This document shows, piece by piece, positions 38,195-64,000 of a DNA stretch of 64,000 nucleotides. This DNA is from Escherichia phage AV116. The translations under genes were made by a program, and so were the position numbers. The notes under the pieces are model-generated. The model searched no databases. It saw nothing but the letters and a program-made list of their open reading frames with translations, and was not told where the DNA came from. Location of the stretch: sequence record OR352946.1; one strand, written 5' to 3'. Position 1 is the stretch's first letter, and the number at the start of each line of letters is the position of its first letter.

Positions 38195-38815
38195 TTAAAG
38201 ATGAAGATACCACCCGTTGTAGTTGCTCTTGCGGACGATTTTCTTTAGGTCTTCATGGTCTCCCACGAACTTTATAGAATAAGAGAAGACGTCAGGTGAG
38301 GTTTCTTTGACATCTAATATAATAATGCAATCTGCGACTCGATGGTTCAAGAAGGGCCCTATATTGATTCCATTACCACCAGGATAATCACCACTGTATC
38401 CTGTGGTAACCGAAATCCATTTAGAATCTATCTGGTGCGTCTTGACTTCGACACGCAACCCGCAGTATTTAGGATGAGCTAACACGTCCCATGCATACGT
38501 GTACGGGTCTTCTACGTCTTCATTACCTTTATTAACATATCCGTCTAGCCAATTTGCTACTACATACTCTGCAAAGACTGCAACCTTACAACGTCGAACA
38601 ACGTCTTCTTTTATTTGACCTGGATCTTGTTTCAACGAGTACCGAGCAGTGTCAGCAATCTTCACCTTCATTTCACTAGTCAAAAACTCATTCGACAGGA
38701 TAAATGTCGGAAGATTCTTCAGCCTCAACAGCCCCAAGTTCGTCTTTACCATAGATACCTCTGATGTGTAGTTCGCCAAAATAAATGCGGTCACCTTCTT
38801 CAAGATATTCTGCAT
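38195..38815 (-). CDS. hypothetical protein; possibly the distal part of a disrupted rII-region gene (rIIB C-terminal part or denB)
   Basis: 206-aa ORF in a third frame directly downstream of the rIIA-like fragment; in-frame TAG immediately before its ATG. Confidence 0.4.
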   Translation of the reverse strand: MQNILKKVTAFILANYTSEVSMVKTNLGLLRLKNLPTFILSNEFLTSEMKVKIADTARYSLKQDPGQIKEDVVRRCKVAVFAEYVVANWLDGYVNKGNEDVEDPYTYAWDVLAHPKYCGLRVEVKTHQIDSKWISVTTGYSGDYPGGNGINIGPFLNHRVADCIIILDVKETSPDVFSYSIKFVGDHEDLKKIVRKSNYNGWYLHL

Positions 38816-38832
38816 CTACAGGCGGAATTTCA

Positions 38833-39642
38833 TTAACAACTTCGTCGCATTCTAACCAGCCGTAGTGTGCATCGCGTCATCATCCATGTTTGTTCTTTAA
38901 TAACACTTCCGATTGGATATACAATACCACCATAAACAGCCATGATATTACCACGTTCACCCCATGGAGCTTCCTTGGCCAAATATACATCGTCAAATTC
39001 TGGGAAGTATTTAATATCTTTAACACCACGAACTTCTGCAATATCACCTAGAGGACGCATAACATAAGCAATTTCGGATGCGAACTTTTCAAAATCTTCT
39101 GGGTTAACAGGCACAACTACTTCAACGCCGGTCCGGTCATCAGGACCCATCTTATCTACGAAGGTTGGCTTAATCTGTGGACCCGTGTCATCTTGGTAGA
39201 TTACGTAACCACGAACTTCACCGTTGTGATAAGACGTAAGGTTAAACGTATCGGTATATGCTAATGGAGCTTTAGAGCCGAGTCCGAATCCACCAATGAA
39301 ATCGTTACTCGATGTTTTAGTTGAAGCAAAATATGAGTTATAGATTCCTGGCTCTTCGTCATTACCTCGAATGGTGAAATCACTCATACCAGGACCAAAG
39401 TCTCGAACTACAAAACGTGGGTCTAAACGACCTGGAGCCTGAACAATAAACTTATCAGTGCAACCATTAAGAATTTGTCCATCGATACAGTTTGTGATTA
39501 ATTCACGTACACAAGCCAATTCTTTGTTTGTATAAAGGTCATTAGACAAAATCTTATAAACTTTGCTATTGCCTTGAATAGTAAATGCTGTGCTCTTACC
39601 GCCTGAACCAATAATCGTTTCTTTAGCCGTTTCGATAATCAT
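38833..39642 (-). pseudogene. rIIA: rIIA-like protein, N-terminal GHKL-ATPase region only (premature stop / frame change)
   Basis: Bergerat-fold motifs [27 protein letters not shown]; ORF stops after 269 codons and protein-like sequence continues in the +1 frame (38691..38876). Confidence 0.5.
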
Positions 39643-39947: not shown

Positions 39948-41048
39948 TTACGCTGTGAAGATTTTATCCCACATCGCAACAACTGCATCTCGATTATACT
40001 TCTTCCATACTGCTTCAGCACGTTTAACTCGAGCTTCGTATGTGTCAGTGAATTCTAATACAGCTTTTGTGTAAAGCGCAACTACTTCTTTCTTAGGAGT
40101 AGAGGAATCAATTTCTACACGCACAGTATCTGGGTCGTATTCGAATGTCGCATGAGGATAATCCTTAAAAACTAACTGGATTACAGGGACACCTTTAGAG
40201 ATGGCTTCAATAGAACTATTCTCTACCGTACCTGTGTCAGGACACGTATTAATAAGTGCTTTAGCTGTTTTAAGACGTTCCATGATTTCACTATGTGGAG
40301 CATCAATAATAACAGGATACTTAGCCGGTGGTGCCCATTTACTAGGACAGTATCCTGCACCATTTTCGCCTAGTGCTTTAATCGCTTCAAGAGCAACATC
40401 AGTGCGACGCATTTTAGTGTCATAACGTTGGGCACTAATAATCAAATCAGTTGCTGGGAGAACTTCTGGCTTTTCGGTCAAACAAATAACCGGGTAGTCA
40501 TCATGTTCAAATAATGGATTTTCACGCCAGTAATCATAATCAATGCTATCAGTAAGAGCTGAAGTCATATGGCAATATTTACGTTCAAATTCACGGAATG
40601 CTTTAGTAGGAGCATAGCTCTTACCACCGTATTTGTGGGTAAGAATAGTTTGTTTCCAAATTTCTACAATACCGCGAGATACAGGCTCAAATGGAGTTGC
40701 CATAAAATTTCTATGAACACTGGATAAACCGGCATCTTTAATTGCGTTAACAGTTAGTTTAGTCGGTTCCATAGTAACAACAAAATCGTATTCATGGATG
40801 CCGGCTAGTTCAACAATCTTACGAGCCATAGTATAACTCATACCTAGACTGAATTTAGTCAGATGACCAACAGGATGATGATTAACTTTCCAGTCACCAA
40901 ACGTGTCATTATCAAAGCCGATATAATCAATATCAGCACCGATGGACACAAGATATTTCAACACATTTAAATGTACTGCTTCAAGGCCACCTTGTACACG
41001 GTCAGGATTAAATGGGACTGCACGAGATGGGATAAACATAACTTTCAT
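39948..41048 (-). CDS. putative GT-B fold glycosyltransferase
   Basis: 366 aa; C-terminal ENSSIEAISKGVPVIQ resembles the GT-B E-x(n)-E/A-x-x-G-x-PV donor-binding motif; no counterpart at this position in T4. Confidence 0.5.
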   Translation of the reverse strand: MKVMFIPSRAVPFNPDRVQGGLEAVHLNVLKYLVSIGADIDYIGFDNDTFGDWKVNHHPVGHLTKFSLGMSYTMARKIVELAGIHEYDFVVTMEPTKLTVNAIKDAGLSSVHRNFMATPFEPVSRGIVEIWKQTILTHKYGGKSYAPTKAFREFERKYCHMTSALTDSIDYDYWRENPLFEHDDYPVICLTEKPEVLPATDLIISAQRYDTKMRRTDVALEAIKALGENGAGYCPSKWAPPAKYPVIIDAPHSEIMERLKTAKALINTCPDTGTVENSSIEAISKGVPVIQLVFKDYPHATFEYDPDTVRVEIDSSTPKKEVVALYTKAVLEFTDTYEARVKRAEAVWKKYNRDAVVAMWDKIFTA

Positions 41049-41059
41049 AATTAAGCCTT

Positions 41060-41092
41060 ATTAAAATTAAAATGAAGCTCCCGAAGGAGCTT
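41060..41092 (-). terminator. intrinsic terminator downstream of HNH endonuclease gene
   Basis: AAGCTCCTTCGGGAGCTT hairpin followed by U-rich tract on the minus strand. Confidence 0.55.
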
Positions 41093-41888
41093 AGGACATC
41101 CAACACATTTTATAACCTTTGCAGGTTCTGTTAGGATTATTTAATGCTTTCAATATATTAGAAGACCCTATATCTAAATACTCCCTTAATTCATAAAGAT
41201 AGTTAAAATCAATAGTTTCACCTGTTTTTACACTTGTGATTCTTATAGGCCTTCTTTCATATTTAGATTTATACAACTCTCTAGTCTTAGCTTTAGTTTC
41301 TTCTGACCTAGGAGTGTATGGTTTAAATCCTTTTGTTTTAAATGTTTCCATTCTTGATTTAGTTATTTTATCCTGGTGTTCTTTTGTTTTTACAGGTGCT
41401 TTTCGCCCATTCTCCCAAGATAACTTGTTGGCCTGTATTATTTTATCTATTGCTTCTTGCGTATGAGTTTTACCATAAAATGGATTTAATTCGCCTATAC
41501 GTTGTGAAGCAATATGTGACATTAATTCTCTTGTTGCTTTAGTATGTTTTTTACCTTTAAATGGATTGCCATTTTTAGCAATCCATTCTTTCATAAATCT
41601 AGAGTGCTCTTTAGAGAATTCTTGTTTAAGCCAATCATAATCTCTAGAATTTCTAGCTCCCATGTAAAAAGCTCTAATAGCCATAAGCATAGAACGGTTC
41701 TTATGAATTTTATAAAGCAATAAATGGGCGATAAAATGCTCTCTAGGGGTCATTTTAACTAGATTTGATTTAGCATTACTCCCACCCATAGATTTAGGCA
41801 AAATATGGTGAGTTTCAGTATAATTAGGAATAGTGCTGCGGTTTTTAGCCGCAGCGATAAGTTTATCATAAATTTTACGATAATTCAT
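41091..41888 (-). CDS. HNH homing endonuclease (MobA-like); start taken at MNYRKIY, TAATG-coupled to gene 39 stop
   Basis: THHILPKSMGG...N...REHFIAH HNH motif; paralogue of ORF 13933..14568. Confidence 0.7.
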   Translation of the reverse strand: MNYRKIYDKLIAAAKNRSTIPNYTETHHILPKSMGGSNAKSNLVKMTPREHFIAHLLLYKIHKNRSMLMAIRAFYMGARNSRDYDWLKQEFSKEHSRFMKEWIAKNGNPFKGKKHTKATRELMSHIASQRIGELNPFYGKTHTQEAIDKIIQANKLSWENGRKAPVKTKEHQDKITKSRMETFKTKGFKPYTPRSEETKAKTRELYKSKYERRPIRITSVKTGETIDFNYLYELREYLDIGSSNILKALNNPNRTCKGYKMCWMS

Positions 41889-43711
41889 TATCCTAGCATC
41901 CAATCTTTACGGAGTTCAGGGTCGTTACCCATGAGCATTTCAAATAGTTCTTTCCAATTTTCAGGAAGTTTAACTACGTCGTACACAGGGTTTTGAATCA
42001 TTTCTTTATATTCATCCCGCTGAAGTGAGCCCAATCCCTTGATGTATCGAATACTATGCTTAGGCAGTGTATCTTTAACTTCTTCATACTCAGCTACAGT
42101 ATAAAACCATTTTTGAGTTTTGCCAATTTGTGCAATAATTACAGGCGTTTTAACAAAGCGAATACGTCCTTGTTCAAACAATTCAGGCCAATTACTAAAG
42201 AAAGCAAGCAAAGCCGGATAAATACTTCCAAGGCCGTCATGATCGGCATCGGTCATAATTGCAATATTACGGTAGTTCGTATTCTCTGCCTTTTCACCAA
42301 GAATAAGACCCGTGATAGCACAGATATCAAAGAGCTCTTTGTTCTTCATCATATCGGCATATGACATACCCCAGCTATTCATCACCTTACCACGTAATGG
42401 GAATCCGCCGTGTAGTTCACGGTCACGAACATCAATGAGATAACCAATTGCCGAATCACCTTCTGTTAAAAACAATGTCGTATCTGCATCTTTACCACAT
42501 TGGTTAGCTTTAATATGCTTATGAACCTTAGCTTTAGTTGCCTTTTTAGCTGCTTTAGTTTCTGCAGCCTTTTCTGCTGCCAATTTACGAGCTAATGCGG
42601 CTTCAATTATAGGCATTAAAACTGCGTCAGAATTCAAAATATTTTTTGCCAATTTTTTTGTATCTAATTTAATATGCGTCCGAATTTCGCCATAAGGACT
42701 TGTTAAACGCTCTTTGGTTTGGGAATCAAAACGAAGGTTCTTCATTCCACGAACGAACATTAAGAGAGTGAGACATTCCTTGATTCGCGCTTTAGTCACG
42801 TCGATTTTATATTTGCGTTTAATAGCCGGAATTAATTCTTCGCTAATGTCGTCCATCACACATTCAATGTGATGACCACCGTTTTTGGTATGGATGTTAT
42901 TCACATAAGTTAAATGACGGAAGCCATCTGGTGACCGTCCAATGGCAATAGAGCATCCGTCTTGTTCTTGAATGATGGTCTCTTCATCAAATTGTTTAGC
43001 AAACTTCTTAAAGTTACCTTGAATCTTTTTGCCATTAAATTTAAATTCAATACCAGGATAAACGACCGCCAATGTTTGGAGCCGGTCTATAGTAATATCT
43101 TGGTATATTTTTTCAAATTGATTCATTTCAAAATGTGAGAAATCAGGAATAAACTCGACCTTAGTACCGTTGTTTTTAGACGGCTTAGATTTCCAAGAAA
43201 TATTATCAGCGTTATTAGAACAATTAACGGTCAATTCATTTTTACCATCTGAAGTAGTGCCAACAAAAGAGACAGAAAAAATATTTGTTAATGAAGAACC
43301 GACACCGTTTTGTCCACCCGTAACACGTTCTTTGTCGTCACCAAAGTTGCCACCGGCTTTTGTACGTGTCCACGCCGCAACTGGTCCTGGAATTTCTTCT
43401 CCTTCAGGAGTAATAACTGTTTCTTGAGGAATACCTCGACCATTATCTTCAACAGTCACTTTATTAGAATTTAAATCAATACTAACGGAAATTTTATTAG
43501 CATATTTGAAATTGGTTCGAATAGCTTCGTCTACTGAGTTGTCAATAATTTCATCAATTAATTTGAGAACACCTGCAACATATTTAACCTTTTTAAATTC
43601 ACCGAATAGGAAACGTTCTTGTTCTTCATTGGCAACACTTCCAATATACATGCCAGGACGCTTCAAACAATGCTCTTTATCAGATAGCATTTCAATTTTA
43701 TTATCAATCAT
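41888..43711 (-). CDS. 39: DNA topoisomerase II large subunit gp39, unsplit (includes the region encoded by T4 gene 60)
   Basis: GHKL ATPase motifs (LIDEIIDNSVDE, DNGRGIP) plus C-terminal TOPRIM region IMTDADHDGLGSIYPALLAFFSNWPELFEQGRIRFVKTP matching recalled T4 gp60. Confidence 0.85.
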   Translation of the reverse strand: MIDNKIEMLSDKEHCLKRPGMYIGSVANEEQERFLFGEFKKVKYVAGVLKLIDEIIDNSVDEAIRTNFKYANKISVSIDLNSNKVTVEDNGRGIPQETVITPEGEEIPGPVAAWTRTKAGGNFGDDKERVTGGQNGVGSSLTNIFSVSFVGTTSDGKNELTVNCSNNADNISWKSKPSKNNGTKVEFIPDFSHFEMNQFEKIYQDITIDRLQTLAVVYPGIEFKFNGKKIQGNFKKFAKQFDEETIIQEQDGCSIAIGRSPDGFRHLTYVNNIHTKNGGHHIECVMDDISEELIPAIKRKYKIDVTKARIKECLTLLMFVRGMKNLRFDSQTKERLTSPYGEIRTHIKLDTKKLAKNILNSDAVLMPIIEAALARKLAAEKAAETKAAKKATKAKVHKHIKANQCGKDADTTLFLTEGDSAIGYLIDVRDRELHGGFPLRGKVMNSWGMSYADMMKNKELFDICAITGLILGEKAENTNYRNIAIMTDADHDGLGSIYPALLAFFSNWPELFEQGRIRFVKTPVIIAQIGKTQKWFYTVAEYEEVKDTLPKHSIRYIKGLGSLQRDEYKEMIQNPVYDVVKLPENWKELFEMLMGNDPELRKDWMLG

Positions 43712-60372: not shown

Positions 60373-60735
60373 TTAAAAGAATTTAAATTTTTTCTTGGTT
60401 CGTTCATTAAAAGCTTGTTGTACTTGCATTGTAACACATTTTTCAACATGTGGTGCAAGTTCTGCTTTTCTGTCCTGGTCAAGAACTGCAAAGTCCATTA
60501 CGATTTTACCATCAACCCAGTCTAGTTTTGTAATATAGACTATATGATGGGAACCGTCTTCAAGTGTAATCAGAATCTCTTGAATGACATTTTCCATTGC
60601 TGAACGGATAATTTTAAGAGATTCATTAAACACTCGTTCTTTGCGAATGTCCTCCCCTTCCGAAGAAGGGGATTCATCAACGATTTCTAGATTTAAATCA
60701 TCGAGATTATTCATCGAAATCTTCCATTTCGTCAA
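60373..60735 (-). CDS. 40: gp40-like protein (head assembly accessory), probable
   Basis: 120-aa ORF between uvsX and 41 as in T4. Confidence 0.55.
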   Translation of the reverse strand: MTKWKISMNNLDDLNLEIVDESPSSEGEDIRKERVFNESLKIIRSAMENVIQEILITLEDGSHHIVYITKLDWVDGKIVMDFAVLDQDRKAELAPHVEKCVTMQVQQAFNERTKKKFKFF

Positions 60736-61879
60736 GGTCGTTTTCTATATCTGCTGCAGACGGAGCATCAGAAGTTTTAACCGGAACTTTAGTTGTTGCT
60801 TTGCAATTAATAAGGTCGTTAACAGCGTCATCAACTTCTTTAATAGAAGAGATAGCACCTAGTTTATATTTAGTTTCAATTGCATCTCGGAAAGGTTTGT
60901 GTTTAAACAAAGGTCCCCAGAATTCTACACAATCAGTAGCTTTAGCACGCCATGATTTTTCTTCACGAATCATTTCACCTGTTTCTTCGTCAAGGAATTC
61001 ACGAGCATACCAACCGGCTTTAGGCTTAACTACAAAACCAATTTCAGTTGCCATTTCTAACAAGCCACTGAATGGGTCAATACCGCCATCAAAATTAACC
61101 GTGATCGGGAAAGTAGATTTCTCTTTAACTGTACGAGATTTTTCCGCTTTCAACGTGAAGTCATAACCGGTCAATTCTGTACCTTCTTTAACCTGACGTT
61201 TAGAGATAAAAAATACCGTGTTGGCAGAATAAAGAATACCTGTACCACCGCCCATAATCTCTTTAGGATACAATCCGCCGATTTCCATTGCTGTATGGTT
61301 AATTGCAACACATGGAATATCTTTAATAGTCAGATAAGGAGTCACAATGCGGAACAGAGATTTAAGTGCCTTAGCACGAGACATATCACCTACAACTTTC
61401 TCGTTCAACGCATCTTCGGTTTCTTTCTTAGATGCAGTATTACCGATTGAATCGATAAAGATAATAACTTTATCACCGCGTTCAATAGCGTCAAGCTGAT
61501 TAGTCATATCAACTTTAAGTTGTTCGACAGATTGAATCGGAGTATGAACTACACGGTCTAAATCAACACCCATTGAACGAAAATAAGATTCTGAAGCACC
61601 GAATTCTGAGTCATAAAACAAACAGATTGCATCTTTATATTTCTTCATATACGCTGCAACCATAGTTAGTCCAAACAACGTTTTAAAGTGTTTAGAAGGA
61701 GCAGCAAAAATAGTTAAGCCTGATTGCAATCCTGCATTCAGAGCACCACCTAATGCAATATTCAACATCGGAATACGAGTAGGGACTTCATCACGATTAT
61801 TAAACAGCTTAGACTTAGTCAAGTCTGCAGTCATTTTAGAAGTAGAAGCTTTAATCAGACGAGATTTTAAATCAGACAT
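60707..61879 (-). CDS. uvsX: recombinase UvsX (RecA/Rad51 family)
   Basis: 390 aa; MSDLKSRLIKASTSKMTADL... and RecA-fold core match T4 UvsX (391 aa). Confidence 0.9.
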   Translation of the reverse strand: MSDLKSRLIKASTSKMTADLTKSKLFNNRDEVPTRIPMLNIALGGALNAGLQSGLTIFAAPSKHFKTLFGLTMVAAYMKKYKDAICLFYDSEFGASESYFRSMGVDLDRVVHTPIQSVEQLKVDMTNQLDAIERGDKVIIFIDSIGNTASKKETEDALNEKVVGDMSRAKALKSLFRIVTPYLTIKDIPCVAINHTAMEIGGLYPKEIMGGGTGILYSANTVFFISKRQVKEGTELTGYDFTLKAEKSRTVKEKSTFPITVNFDGGIDPFSGLLEMATEIGFVVKPKAGWYAREFLDEETGEMIREEKSWRAKATDCVEFWGPLFKHKPFRDAIETKYKLGAISSIKEVDDAVNDLINCKATTKVPVKTSDAPSAADIENDLDEMEDFDE

Positions 61880-61932
61880 TGTATTTTTCCATAGGCATCA
61901 TTATATTTTACTCATGTTTAAAAGATAAGATG

Positions 61933-61960
61933 ATTATATACTAAGGGTTATACAGCATTT
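61933..61960 (-). promoter_or_regulatory. candidate MotA-dependent middle promoter upstream of uvsX
   Basis: Minus strand AAATGCTGTATAACCCTTAGTATATAATC: MotA-box-like TGCTGTA about 12 nt before a TATAAT -10. Confidence 0.35.
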
Positions 61961-61977
61961 AAAACTTTAAATGGCTC

Positions 61978-62526
61978 TTAACGAGCCCATTTGATAATTT
62001 CTGTAATCAAATAATTACGTTCGCTTGCATTAAATCCTATAACTTTGTTAGCACCATCATGATTAAGTAATTGATACGTTTGGATTTTGTTATGAATTGC
62101 AAACTCTTCAAAATGTGAAATGACTGTATTAAAACCGAATGAAGACAAAGTAATAAGGTCGTCTTCAAAACTTTCAGTCATTTCGTTACGTGTTAAAATA
62201 ATTGTGAACACATCATGGTTTTGGCAAAGACGAACATAATCCTGTTCATAAACGTCAAGAACCGAGTCCGCATCTTGTCGAATACGTCCATAAACCCAGT
62301 TACTAATATATCCACGGTCTAATAGATAAATCTTAGTAGGGTCTAAATAATTCAACATTGTTTCGAAACAGCCAACTTCATTTCGAGACTTAACATCGAA
62401 ACGTCCATCAACCGTTCGTTTAGGGAAATCAATCTTTACATATCTTTCACTAATTTCCATTATGTCATTAATGAAAGTTGTTTTACCAGCATTATCTGGG
62501 CCATCTACTAAAATAATTTTAGCCAT
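61978..62526 (-). CDS. P-loop nucleotide/nucleoside kinase-like protein
   Basis: 182 aa; Walker A DGPDNAGKTT at N-terminus and LDRGY motif reminiscent of thymidylate/deoxynucleoside kinases. Confidence 0.5.
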   Translation of the reverse strand: MAKIILVDGPDNAGKTTFINDIMEISERYVKIDFPKRTVDGRFDVKSRNEVGCFETMLNYLDPTKIYLLDRGYISNWVYGRIRQDADSVLDVYEQDYVRLCQNHDVFTIILTRNEMTESFEDDLITLSSFGFNTVISHFEEFAIHNKIQTYQLLNHDGANKVIGFNASERNYLITEIIKWAR

Positions 62527-62527
62527 T

Positions 62528-63427
62528 TTATTCCTCGATTACGACATCTTCGTATTTAGGTATATTATACGGTGAAGAAATTAAAGCGTTAAAGTAGATG
62601 AACTCACCAAGACCTGGATGGAATACTTCTTCAGGATTTTCGAAATATTGAATCTTCGGACGTCCTTTAAGAATTTGATAGTACTCAGTTTTAGTTGGTT
62701 TAAAAATTCGAATCAACGCTTCTTCAGGATACTTATTTCTGTCGAAGCTATTATTTGGATCGGTTATATAAAGCGGTTGGCCTAATTGAATTGCACATTC
62801 AACCACTTGTTCAAAACGATAGCACGGGTCACTAATTCGAAATGGATGAAAAATACCATCTAGATGAATAGGAGCCAAATCACCTACAAGACGCTGCATG
62901 ATGGAAGGACGTATAACTTTCTGCGTTACGATAATCTTATTACCATCTGCACCTGCGTTAACCAGCACTTCTTTTTGACGTTCATTCAACACAGTAGTTT
63001 GAAGTGAACGATTAACCGACAACATATCAGTTTTTAAGAATTCGTCAATATAAAAACGTGGTTTATTAGGGTCTGCAGTGATATTGAAATTGAATTCTAC
63101 ATCAAAAGCGCCGTCATATCCAGTGATATCTGTGATTAGAAAATCACAATCATAATAAGCAATTAATGAATCAACCACAAATTCATTTTCAGACCAGAAA
63201 TATTTACGAGTGTTATACGCGTTATCTTTATACCATAATGGAACAAACTTAAATTCTGGAAAAAGACGTTCGCATTCTTTAATATCAGATGCATTACGTG
63301 GATATGTAATCACATCACCCGGATTAGCACGGTGCAAATGAAGTTGGAAGTTGCCATCCTTAAGGATAGCATACTGTCCAGTTTCATAAGACCGCATACT
63401 CAAGATAGGTACGCGGAAAATAGCCAT
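62528..63427 (-). CDS. hypothetical protein occupying the locus where T4 has beta-glucosyltransferase
   Basis: 299-aa ORF between uvsX and gene 42; no similarity to recalled T4 Bgt. Confidence 0.45.
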   Translation of the reverse strand: MAIFRVPILSMRSYETGQYAILKDGNFQLHLHRANPGDVITYPRNASDIKECERLFPEFKFVPLWYKDNAYNTRKYFWSENEFVVDSLIAYYDCDFLITDITGYDGAFDVEFNFNITADPNKPRFYIDEFLKTDMLSVNRSLQTTVLNERQKEVLVNAGADGNKIIVTQKVIRPSIMQRLVGDLAPIHLDGIFHPFRISDPCYRFEQVVECAIQLGQPLYITDPNNSFDRNKYPEEALIRIFKPTKTEYYQILKGRPKIQYFENPEEVFHPGLGEFIYFNALISSPYNIPKYEDVVIEE

Positions 63428-64000
63428 TAGTCAAGGAATCCTTTAACATAATCAAAATCACGTTCAAACACATGGGCACTTACCATGGTATGAGTATAAT
63501 CACCAACTTCTACACCACATTCGTTAGCGATATAATGAAGTAATTTTCCTTGGAGATAAAAATCCAACTGCATAACAACAGCACAGTTCTGGGAACGCAT
63601 ATGACAGTGGGTATAAAGCTTACCGTCACGAATATAATAGGTCACTGAGTCAGTACATGGATATTCAAGCGTTTCGTCTGAATCAAGCAAAGCCTGATCA
63701 GAACTTTCTAGAATTTGGAACACAACTCTTCGGGAGTTAGGCTTCTCTTTAAGTTCTTTTAGAAGAGCTGGTAATTGAGCCGCAATGCGAGGACCATAGA
63801 AAGTGTTGAAGTTCGCCGGCAAAACATCTGATTTTGGTTTAGAAATAAATTTAGCGACATTAGGATATGCCTTAAACGCTTCTTCTGCATTGGTACCACC
63901 AGAAATCATAAACTTCCAGAAGTCTTCGGCATATTCATAAGAGATGCGGTTAATACGTGGGTCGGTCATTTTGAATGATGATGGAGTGTCAACAACTACT
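63427..64000 (-). CDS. 42: dCMP hydroxymethylase gp42 (3' portion; ORF runs off the window end)
   Basis: Thymidylate synthase-family motifs RRVVFQ and YPCTDSVTYYIRDGKLYTHCHMRSQN; reading frame stays open to position 64000. Confidence 0.7.
   Translation of the reverse strand, partial: VVVDTPSSFKMTDPRINRISYEYAEDFWKFMISGGTNAEEAFKAYPNVAKFISKPKSDVLPANFNTFYGPRIAAQLPALLKELKEKPNSRRVVFQILESSDQALLDSDETLEYPCTDSVTYYIRDGKLYTHCHMRSQNCAVVMQLDFYLQGKLLHYIANECGVEVGDYTHTMVSAHVFERDFDYVKGFLD

Follow-up and report, generated by a model that had tools for sequence, protein, structure and literature searches.

What stands between uvsX and the neighbouring ThyA-family gene in Escherichia phage AV116, at the place where T4 carries its beta-glucosyltransferase (Bgt)? 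We examined this question in a stretch of 64,000 nucleotides from sequence record OR352946.1 (the window, meaning the whole stretch of DNA that was analysed), which is a Mosigvirus (RB69-like) segment. T4 reads uvsX - segA - b-gt - 42, as the initial annotation of this DNA had it in naming bgt as the gene of the uvsX-42 interval. In the window the interval holds two minus-strand open reading frames (ORFs), exactly where that annotation had drawn them: one of 182 codons, whose product carries DGPDNAGKTT (residues 8-17) and LDRGY (residues 69-73), and one of 299 codons. We consider it likely, with a probability of about 0.8, that this interval encodes the nucleotide-proximal core of the arabinosyl-5-hydroxycytosine pathway, in which the 182-aa protein would be a kinase acting on 5-hydroxydeoxycytidine monophosphate (5-hydroxy-dCMP, 5hodCMP) and the 299-aa protein a glycosyltransferase (GT) adding the first arabinofuranose (Araf).

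Judging by their conservation, both ORFs are genuine genes rather than chance frames, because each has many homologue clusters (138 for the 299-aa protein, all from phages or metagenomes, and 27 for the 182-aa protein, at E<=1e-3) and is found in hundreds of phage records; positions 61700-64000 are 98.6-99% identical to dozens of RB69-like coliphages. The minus strand is read in the order ThyA homologue, 299-aa GT, 182-aa kinase, uvsX, gene 40 and gene 41, with a 98-bp spacer between the kinase gene and uvsX. The stop and start codons of the first three genes overlap or nearly abut (Table 1), a scan of 61700-64000 found no terminator-like site or hairpin, between these genes or elsewhere, and promoter and terminator scans, Rfam and repeat searches of 61500-64000 returned background levels only. 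Translation of the three core genes is coupled, and they are probably co-transcribed.

The identity of the flanking gene sets the chemistry. Its open frame runs to base 64000, and the translated part matches Pfam Thymidylat_synt (E 1e-15) and PDB entries 9iqu, 9iqc and 9ir2 (E 2e-121). It carries HMRSQNCAVVMQLDF (HMRSQN...LD), with Asn at the position of Asp169 of E. coli ThyA (D169N) and Asp at that of Asn177 (N177D); T4 gp42 has MRSND at this site. The stretch is identical in RB69 and in HY126, whose 'Afh' genes are reportedly those of He et al. 2026 and Mahler et al. 2025. According to Lee et al., the D169N/N177D signature marks 5-hydroxy-dCMP synthases (PMC13326640). Because of this MRSQN/D169N signature and the near-identity to 9iqu/9iqc, we read the gene beside the 299-aa GT, from its sequence, as a flavin/O2-dependent dCMP 5-hydroxylase and not, as the initial annotation had assumed in calling it 42, a dCMP hydroxymethylase. 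It follows that the modification is of the arabosyl-O-C5 type, based on 5-hydroxycytosine (5hoC), and not on 5-hydroxymethylcytosine (hmC) (PMC13326640).

This places the gene pair within a pathway that has already been described, down to the same structural matches. Arabinose was found in RB69 DNA by Thomas et al. 2018, who also noted a module without T4 homologues between gene 43 and uvsX (PMC6024577). Lee et al. 2026 showed that RB69-like phages replace cytosine by arabinose-decorated 5-hydroxycytosine, correcting the chemistry to arabinofuranosyl-O-5-cytosine with a bridging oxygen that derives from 5hoC, and confirmed experimentally that RB69 gp48 is the 5hodCMP synthase that converts dCMP to 5hodCMP (PMC13326640). 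In the same work RB69 gp159, a kinase of the gp1 type acting on deoxynucleoside monophosphates (dNMPs), phosphorylated 5hodCMP to the diphosphate 5hodCDP in vitro, the hydroxylase and the gp1-type kinase sufficed for incorporation of 5hoC into E. coli DNA, and the orthologues of our two proteins, gp45 and gp46:47, were named nucleotide kinase and 'arabinosyltransferase 1' (PMC13326640). The donor, uridine diphosphate (UDP)-arabinofuranose, is made by RB69 gp55, gp52:53 and gp51 (isomerase, bifunctional kinase/pyrophosphorylase and phosphatase), with the sugar kinase step attributed to the C-terminal, APH-like domain of gp52:53/AfhE (PMC13326640); the counterparts of these genes are placed beyond the end of the window. 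The initial annotation had proposed that the interval, together with the GT-like gene at 39948..41048, could form an alternative DNA hypermodification module, and this is borne out by orthology to the published pathway and by the product of that gene, a 366-aa GT that matches PDB 9iqz/9ir0 ('phage HY126 glycosyltransferase') over its full length with E 1e-241. The Bas46 orthologue of the 366-aa GT is annotated 'putative hmC-arabinosyltransferase', and a paper on the Durham collection likewise terms the two Mosigvirus GTs 'putative' and 'hypothesized' (PMC13390438).

For the 299-aa protein, sequence-profile libraries were uninformative, and only structure prediction proved informative. Its best family match is phrog_3891 ('unknown function', E 3e-156, residues 1-298); it has no NCBIfam match, neither it nor any of 48 relatives matched a Pfam GT family (Glycos_transf_1, Glyco_trans_4 etc.) at E<=1, and a profile search of all PDB sequences matched nothing. 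Compared by hhalign, a 48-member profile of the family gives a probability of 0.2% against T4 Bgt, with 29 columns aligned, in keeping with the initial annotation's remark that the protein does not resemble Bgt, and a comparison with the 366-aa GT of the same window gives 0.55%, that is, no sequence relation. The predicted structure, by contrast, has the two Rossmann-like domains and the interdomain cleft of the GT-B fold, and its best structural neighbours are sucrose-phosphate synthase (6kih), BshA and PimA; MshA is among the published structural matches of the first GT (PMC13326640). On this model the protein, which had been listed as unknown, is a GT-B glycosyltransferase and coincides with the published candidate for the first arabinosyltransferase. 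Its C-terminal domain, where GT4-type enzymes have their E-x7-E donor-binding motif, holds the family's invariants R197, K246 and H270-P271-G272-x-x-E275, the last a possible counterpart of that motif. By tblastn at a coverage of at least 98%, it is 99.3% identical to RB69 ORF047c+046c, 45.9% to DLP3 gp79 and 47.5% to Thanatos TH1_063. The RB69 match was recovered as two pieces: the gene is intact in the window, whereas the GenBank record of RB69 divides it (ORF046c/ORF047c) through a sequencing error.

The distribution of the two GTs bears on which of them acts first. The 299-aa GT was found by tblastn in 348 phage records and the 182-aa kinase in 343, with the same make-up of genera; the 366-aa GT is limited to 211 phage records, every one from a Mosigvirus or Acinetobacter phage, and no homologue of it appeared in any Serratia or Shewanella phage record. 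LC53, whose DNA carries 5-arabinose-hydroxy-cytosine (bioRxiv 10.64898/2025.12.19.695335), and Thanatos, reported as mono-arabinosylated (PMC13326640), carry the kinase together with the 299-aa GT, which is the only GT found in them, and lack the 366-aa GT; the di-arabinosylated Bas46 and RB69 have both GTs. The 299-aa GT fits the role of first transferase because mono-arabinosylated phages carry it without the 366-aa GT. We therefore infer that it is a candidate first, base-proximal arabinosyltransferase and, standing in the slot of Bgt, its functional analogue.

Structure and motifs also guide the assignment of the 182-aa protein, for which profile matches stayed below threshold, apart from a match to PHROG 761 ('thymidylate kinase', 2e-45). 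It has no match to the Pfam thymidylate kinase (TMPK) family PF02223, and Pfam, NCBIfam and the PDB sequence search yielded only sub-threshold P-loop and dTMP-kinase matches; it scores 16 bits on TIGR00041 against a cutoff of 83, and its relatives reach 16-24 bits where the cutoff is 27. In the predicted structure the best fold matches are nucleoside-monophosphate kinases, closest to TMPKs, and the T4 gp1-type dNMP kinase (1dek/1del) is not the closest of them. The TMPK signatures are present: a P-loop with Asp (G-x-D-x-x-G-K-S/T), F-P-x-R and D-R-Y/H. An hhalign comparison with human TMPK (sequence entered by hand; probability 93.5%) aligns G-P-D11-N-A-G-K15-T-T with G-V-D15-R-A-G-K19-S-T and F34-P35-K36-R37 with F42-P43-E44-R45; human D15 and R45 contact the 3'-OH of the acceptor deoxyribose and the 5'-phosphate. 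D70-R71, which corresponds to the DRY motif, is invariant in 25 sequences down to 20% identity, as are G9, D11, K15, K36, S75, N76, Y79, R113, F120, D122, D123, F132 and N133. Identity by tblastn is 98.9% to RB69 and 46% to DLP3. Because of this thymidylate-kinase fold and these motifs, the protein reads as a TMPK-type deoxynucleoside-monophosphate kinase and not as a sugar kinase.

We then asked what the kinase travels with. A scan of IMG/VR seeded with the 299-aa GT returned 52 loci, of which 42 were classed as strong (E<1e-100 and an intact flank). The kinase lies within 3.5 kb in all 42, usually overlapping the stop codon of the GT gene, and a D169N-type ThyA homologue (MRS[QEN]N) is directly upstream in every one of them bar one, whose upstream flank ends with the contig; the window's close relatives are among these loci. 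Contiguity survives in JS98-type phages, where the order is permuted to kinase, ThyA and GT. Some Klebsiella and Proteus phages have the kinase 2-3 kb upstream as a divergent homologue. The linkage also holds with a divergent kinase of 38-41% identity beside a GT that keeps 68-69%, and the hydroxylase-GT-kinase trio recurs on metagenomic contigs of 356 kb and 122 kb. A second scan, seeded with the 182-aa kinase, found distant relatives that keep an EGPDNxGKTT P-loop and adjoin ThyA homologues retaining Asp169 (MRSND/MRSCD), with no GT. Conversely, in PS2, a phage of the hmC type, a distant GT homologue stands beside gp42 (an MRSND-type ThyA) and Bgt, without a kinase in the surrounding 5 kb or so. 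Because of these GT-less kinase/ThyA loci and the kinase-less homologue of PS2, the kinase tracks the ThyA-family enzyme and not the GT, which favours a kinase cognate to 5-hydroxy-dCMP, the product of the ThyA enzyme. At one further locus (L071) a strong kinase match has no GT or ThyA gene within 7 kb and a polymerase-sized ORF lies almost directly upstream of it; Morganella phage Rgz1, whose kinase is of comparable similarity, has the full trio.

The pathway that we favour runs as follows. The ThyA homologue hydroxylates dCMP to 5-hydroxy-dCMP with flavin and O2, a step shown by others. The 182-aa kinase would then phosphorylate 5-hydroxy-dCMP to the diphosphate, alongside the general T4-type gp1 dNMP kinase, after which host nucleoside diphosphate (NDP) kinase and the phage polymerase would bring 5-hydroxycytosine into DNA. 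The 299-aa GT-B enzyme would move the first alpha-linked arabinofuranose from UDP-arabinofuranose to the 5-hydroxyl, most likely post-replicatively on DNA, and so would match T4 Bgt in position as well as in role; in the published proposal, the 366-aa GT adds a second arabinose.

Several observations weigh against this assignment. DLP3 gp79 showed no activity on 5hoC-DNA in vitro, and Lee et al. cannot tell whether the first arabinosylation hits the mononucleotide or DNA (PMC13326640). Thanatos TH1_063 is reported to form UDP-xylose from UTP and xylose-1-phosphate (PMC12838424). A second 5hodCMP kinase looks redundant beside the gp1 of T4-like phages, which nonetheless never lose it, and a distant module with a D169N ThyA, a HAD-GT fusion and sugar genes (L057) has no kinase within 6 kb. 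The literature surveyed, He et al. 2026 and Mahler et al. 2025 aside, holds no demonstrated activity for either protein. Retention of the kinase although gp1 already phosphorylates 5hodCMP would make sense if the 299-aa GT arabinosylated free 5-hydroxy-dCMP, if the kinase, unlike gp1, accepted the bulky arabinosyl-5-hydroxy-dCMP, and if the sugar-bearing triphosphate were polymerised directly. Such pre-replicative glycosylation would also agree with the strict linkage of hydroxylase, GT and kinase, even with a permuted order or a divergent kinase, and with the small, mostly phosphorylated acceptors of the GT's best structural neighbours (sucrose-phosphate synthase, BshA, PimA and MshA); it is consistent, too, with the negative result for the GT orthologue, the level of action being left open by the authors (PMC13326640). 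We nevertheless regard it as unlikely. The pairing of distant kinases with hydroxymethylase-type ThyA homologues at loci without a GT indicates that the kinase follows the ThyA product, and so lowers the odds of a GT acting on the free nucleotide, as does the PS2 homologue without a nearby kinase. To our knowledge, all phage DNA glycosylations described to date take place after replication. DLP3 gp76 and gp77 attach the later arabinoses to DNA, and the trio of RL38JI has a GT with another fold match and a different sugar, galactose (PMC13326640); for that trio, 5hodCMP as the shared kinase substrate is the simpler account. Overall charge was tried as a marker of DNA- versus nucleotide-acting GTs and dropped, as the 299-aa GT family and the DNA-acting enzymes are both acidic (median pI, the isoelectric point, 5.2 for the 299-aa GT family; 5.7-7.2 for the DNA-acting DLP3 gp76/gp77 and PS2 Bgt); it does not discriminate between pre- and post-replicative action.

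The remaining alternatives change the function of one protein or the other. The UDP-xylose result, an LC-MS/MS (liquid chromatography-tandem mass spectrometry) peak so identified after purified TH1_063, 47.5% identical to the 299-aa protein, was combined with UTP, xylose-1-phosphate and pyrophosphatase (PMC12838424), could mean that the 299-aa protein is a sugar-1-phosphate uridylyltransferase making the UDP-pentose donor and no base transferase, which we think very unlikely. That the 182-aa protein is an ordinary dTMP kinase, raising the dTTP supply of an AT-rich genome and adjacent by accident, would suit its TMPK fold and motifs and the name 'thymidylate kinase' in PHROG and many GenBank records, and strikes us as highly improbable: no Pfam or NCBIfam TMPK threshold is reached, the kinase co-occurs with the GT in the same genera (343 versus 348 records) and in 42/42 strong loci, and it is absent from the PS2 locus examined and from the T4 uvsX-42 interval, the latter speaking against the conserved T4 ORF that the initial annotation had allowed for. 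T4-type phages, moreover, already phosphorylate dTMP with gp1, and the conservation of a clade-specific acidic F120-x-D122-D123 would suit the amino group of cytosine better than O4 of thymine. Finally, a P-loop kinase located within a sugar-modification module might be thought to phosphorylate a sugar or sugar phosphate for the donor, or else the 5-hydroxyl in DNA in the manner of the 5-hmdU DNA kinases of thymidine hypermodification. To this we give next to no credence, given that the best fold matches are nucleoside-monophosphate kinases, that the P-loop Asp and FPxR align to D15 and R45 of human TMPK, and that the sugar kinase step is already assigned to gp52:53/AfhE (PMC13326640); with 5hoC giving the bridging oxygen, a phosphate leaving group on the base would be unneeded. 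Of the two roles once suggested for the kinase, supply of a nucleotide thus agrees with its TMPK-type fold and motifs, and supply of a sugar donor falls to gp55, gp52:53 and gp51.

Table 1. Features of the window and of related loci (L, related loci, given in their own coordinates).
Feature	Coordinates	Strand	Remarks
Kinase gene	61978..62526	-	182-aa thymidylate-kinase-like (d)NMP kinase; orthologues RB69 gp45 (ORF045c), DLP3 gp78, Thanatos TH1_064
GT gene	62528..63427	-	299-aa predicted compact GT-B glycosyltransferase; orthologues RB69 gp46:47 ('arabinosyltransferase 1'), DLP3 gp79, Thanatos TH1_063
ThyA-homologue dCMP 5-hydroxylase gene (5hodCMP synthase; RB69 gp48)	63427..64000	-	3' part, about 190 codons; stop at 63427, read from the sequence; start beyond the window end
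Stop/start overlap TAATG, hydroxylase gene/GT gene	63425..63429	-	direct sequence reading
GT stop TAA, 1 spacer base, kinase ATG (TAAAATG)	62524..62540	-	GAGGA Shine-Dalgarno inside the GT coding end
uvsX	60707..61879	-	390 aa; downstream of the kinase gene
Second GT gene (RB69 gp3; Aat in Bas46)	39948..41048	-	366 aa; 21 kb off, between rIIA and topoisomerase gene 39
HNH/NUMOD3 homing-endonuclease gene	41091-41903	-	270 aa; between the 366-aa GT gene and gene 39
rII region, with deletion	38195-39642	-	denB-like endonuclease gene 38195..38815; shortened rIIA 38833..39642
U32-family protein, RB69 ORF050c	L002 6837-8006		the window's would fall beyond 64000
U32-family protein, relative	L001 5723-6883
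U32 and chorismate mutase, Thanatos TH1_065/066	L004 7462-8852
U32 and chorismate mutase, Morganella phage Rgz1 gp36/gp34	L108 5667-7400
GT homologue, PS2 gp042	L010 5001-5927
HAD-GT fusion, distant module	L057 5452-7107		551 aa
Flavodoxin_2/NADPH-dependent FMN-reductase genes	L008 4739-5293; L057 4232-4702		metagenomic relatives; adjoin D169N ThyA

Some further observations concern the neighbourhood of these genes. In the spacer upstream of uvsX (61880-61977), the minus strand reads AAATGCTGTAT and, about 12 nt further on, TATAAT, a combination read by eye that we take to resemble a T4 MotA-dependent middle promoter; uvsX may accordingly have its own promoter there, at a site left unflagged by a sigma-70 promoter scan. 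The 366-aa GT gene lies next to a deletion in the rII region. Here rIIA stops after about 269 codons and the next gene encodes a denB-like endonuclease, whereas in the relative AV109 denB is followed by a small ORF, a 927-nt rIIB and a complete rIIA of about 2.4 kb, and only then by the 366-aa GT; the window lacks about 2.7 kb, comprising the 3' part of rIIA and the whole of rIIB. The junction is matched across by phage FL18 (PP400780.1) only, and 166 other records break there. On the other side of the 366-aa GT gene, the homing-endonuclease gene (NUMOD3 E 5e-9) has a 16-nt overlap with the end of gene 39. In phage JK45 the match to the 366-aa GT falls in two pieces over 1.6 kb, a pattern that suggests an insertion inside the gene.

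Others concern the modules of relatives. PS2 gp042, the distant homologue of the 299-aa GT (hhalign probability 99.3%, 20% identity), has the hydroxymethylase-type gp42 on one side and two annotated glucosyltransferases on the other; it does not conserve the C-terminal invariants of the arabinosyl clade (FPFRISD, TDPN and HPG), and may be inactive or work with another donor. L057 is a very AT-rich viral contig in which the GT homologue forms the C-terminal portion of a protein whose N-terminus looks by eye like a HAD-type sugar phosphatase, with no Pfam match; next come genes for a SIS-isomerase-like protein and an AfhE-like NTP-transferase/kinase. The flavin reductase genes that adjoin a D169N ThyA in this and one other distant module (Table 1) suggest that some phages bring their own flavin reductase, consistent with the published flavin dependence of the hydroxylase. 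The arabinosylation module of relatives also encodes a Peptidase_U32-family protein (42-43 bits against a Pfam cutoff of 22.4). In Thanatos it adjoins a type II chorismate mutase (CM_2, 34.7 bits) and has a Cys cluster at its end, C-x4-C-x3-C-x2-C; in Rgz1 the U32 gene and the chorismate mutase (CM_2, 46.1 bits) are separated by a small ORF. RB69 ORF049c (79 aa) was considered as a chorismate mutase like its positional counterparts and rejected, having no Pfam match and no BLAST similarity. In E. coli, 5-hydroxycytidine in 23S rRNA requires RlhA, of the U32 family, together with prephenate (from chorismate mutase) and Fe-S clusters (PMC5727448). By analogy this suggests a second, prephenate-dependent route to 5-hydroxycytosine beside the O2/flavin ThyA route, presumably independent of O2; RB69 gp50 goes under the label 'sugar or heterocycle reductase' in Lee et al., where U32, chorismate and prephenate are unmentioned (PMC13326640).

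Arabinosyl-5-hydroxycytosine gives these phages protection against restriction enzymes, against the Brig1 glycosylase and against some types of CRISPR-Cas (PMC13216743), and Mosigviruses are common phage-therapy candidates. The kinase/GT pair is the least characterised part of the pathway, its published names deriving solely from predicted structure. Our comparison adds that the trio is invariant in strong loci, that the 299-aa GT occurs without the second GT in mono-arabinosylated phages, and that the kinase family pairs with ThyA homologues generally. Should glycosylation prove pre-replicative after all, the polymerase would incorporate an already glycosylated dCTP analogue; we know of no earlier case of nucleotide-level glycosylation feeding DNA synthesis.

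Set beside known enzymes, the kinase shares D11, K15, FPKR and D70-R71 with type I TMPKs (human, vaccinia 2v54) at 13-19% identity; it is shorter than these, has its own invariant R113 and F120-x-D122-D123 block at the TMPK LID position, and its expected substrate is a C5-modified dCMP, where theirs is dTMP. It would share with T4 gp1 the step from modified dNMP to dNDP. The 299-aa protein is 8-12% identical to, and about 60-100 residues shorter than, retaining GT4-type GT-B enzymes (6kih, BshA, MshA and PimA), with an invariant S-M-R-S-Y replacing their glycine-rich N-terminal loop and H270-P-G-L-G-E275 in what would be the E-x7-E region. T4 Bgt also has GT-B architecture; it shares with the 299-aa GT the genomic slot between uvsX and a ThyA-family gene, and presumably the same job, addition of the first sugar to the C5-oxygen of a modified cytosine. 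The closest comparison is with RB69 gp45/gp46:47/gp48 and DLP3 gp78/gp79/gp80, which are direct orthologues in like gene order with uvsX downstream: nothing substantive differs, and our predicted folds and top structural matches agree with those published for that system (PMC13326640).

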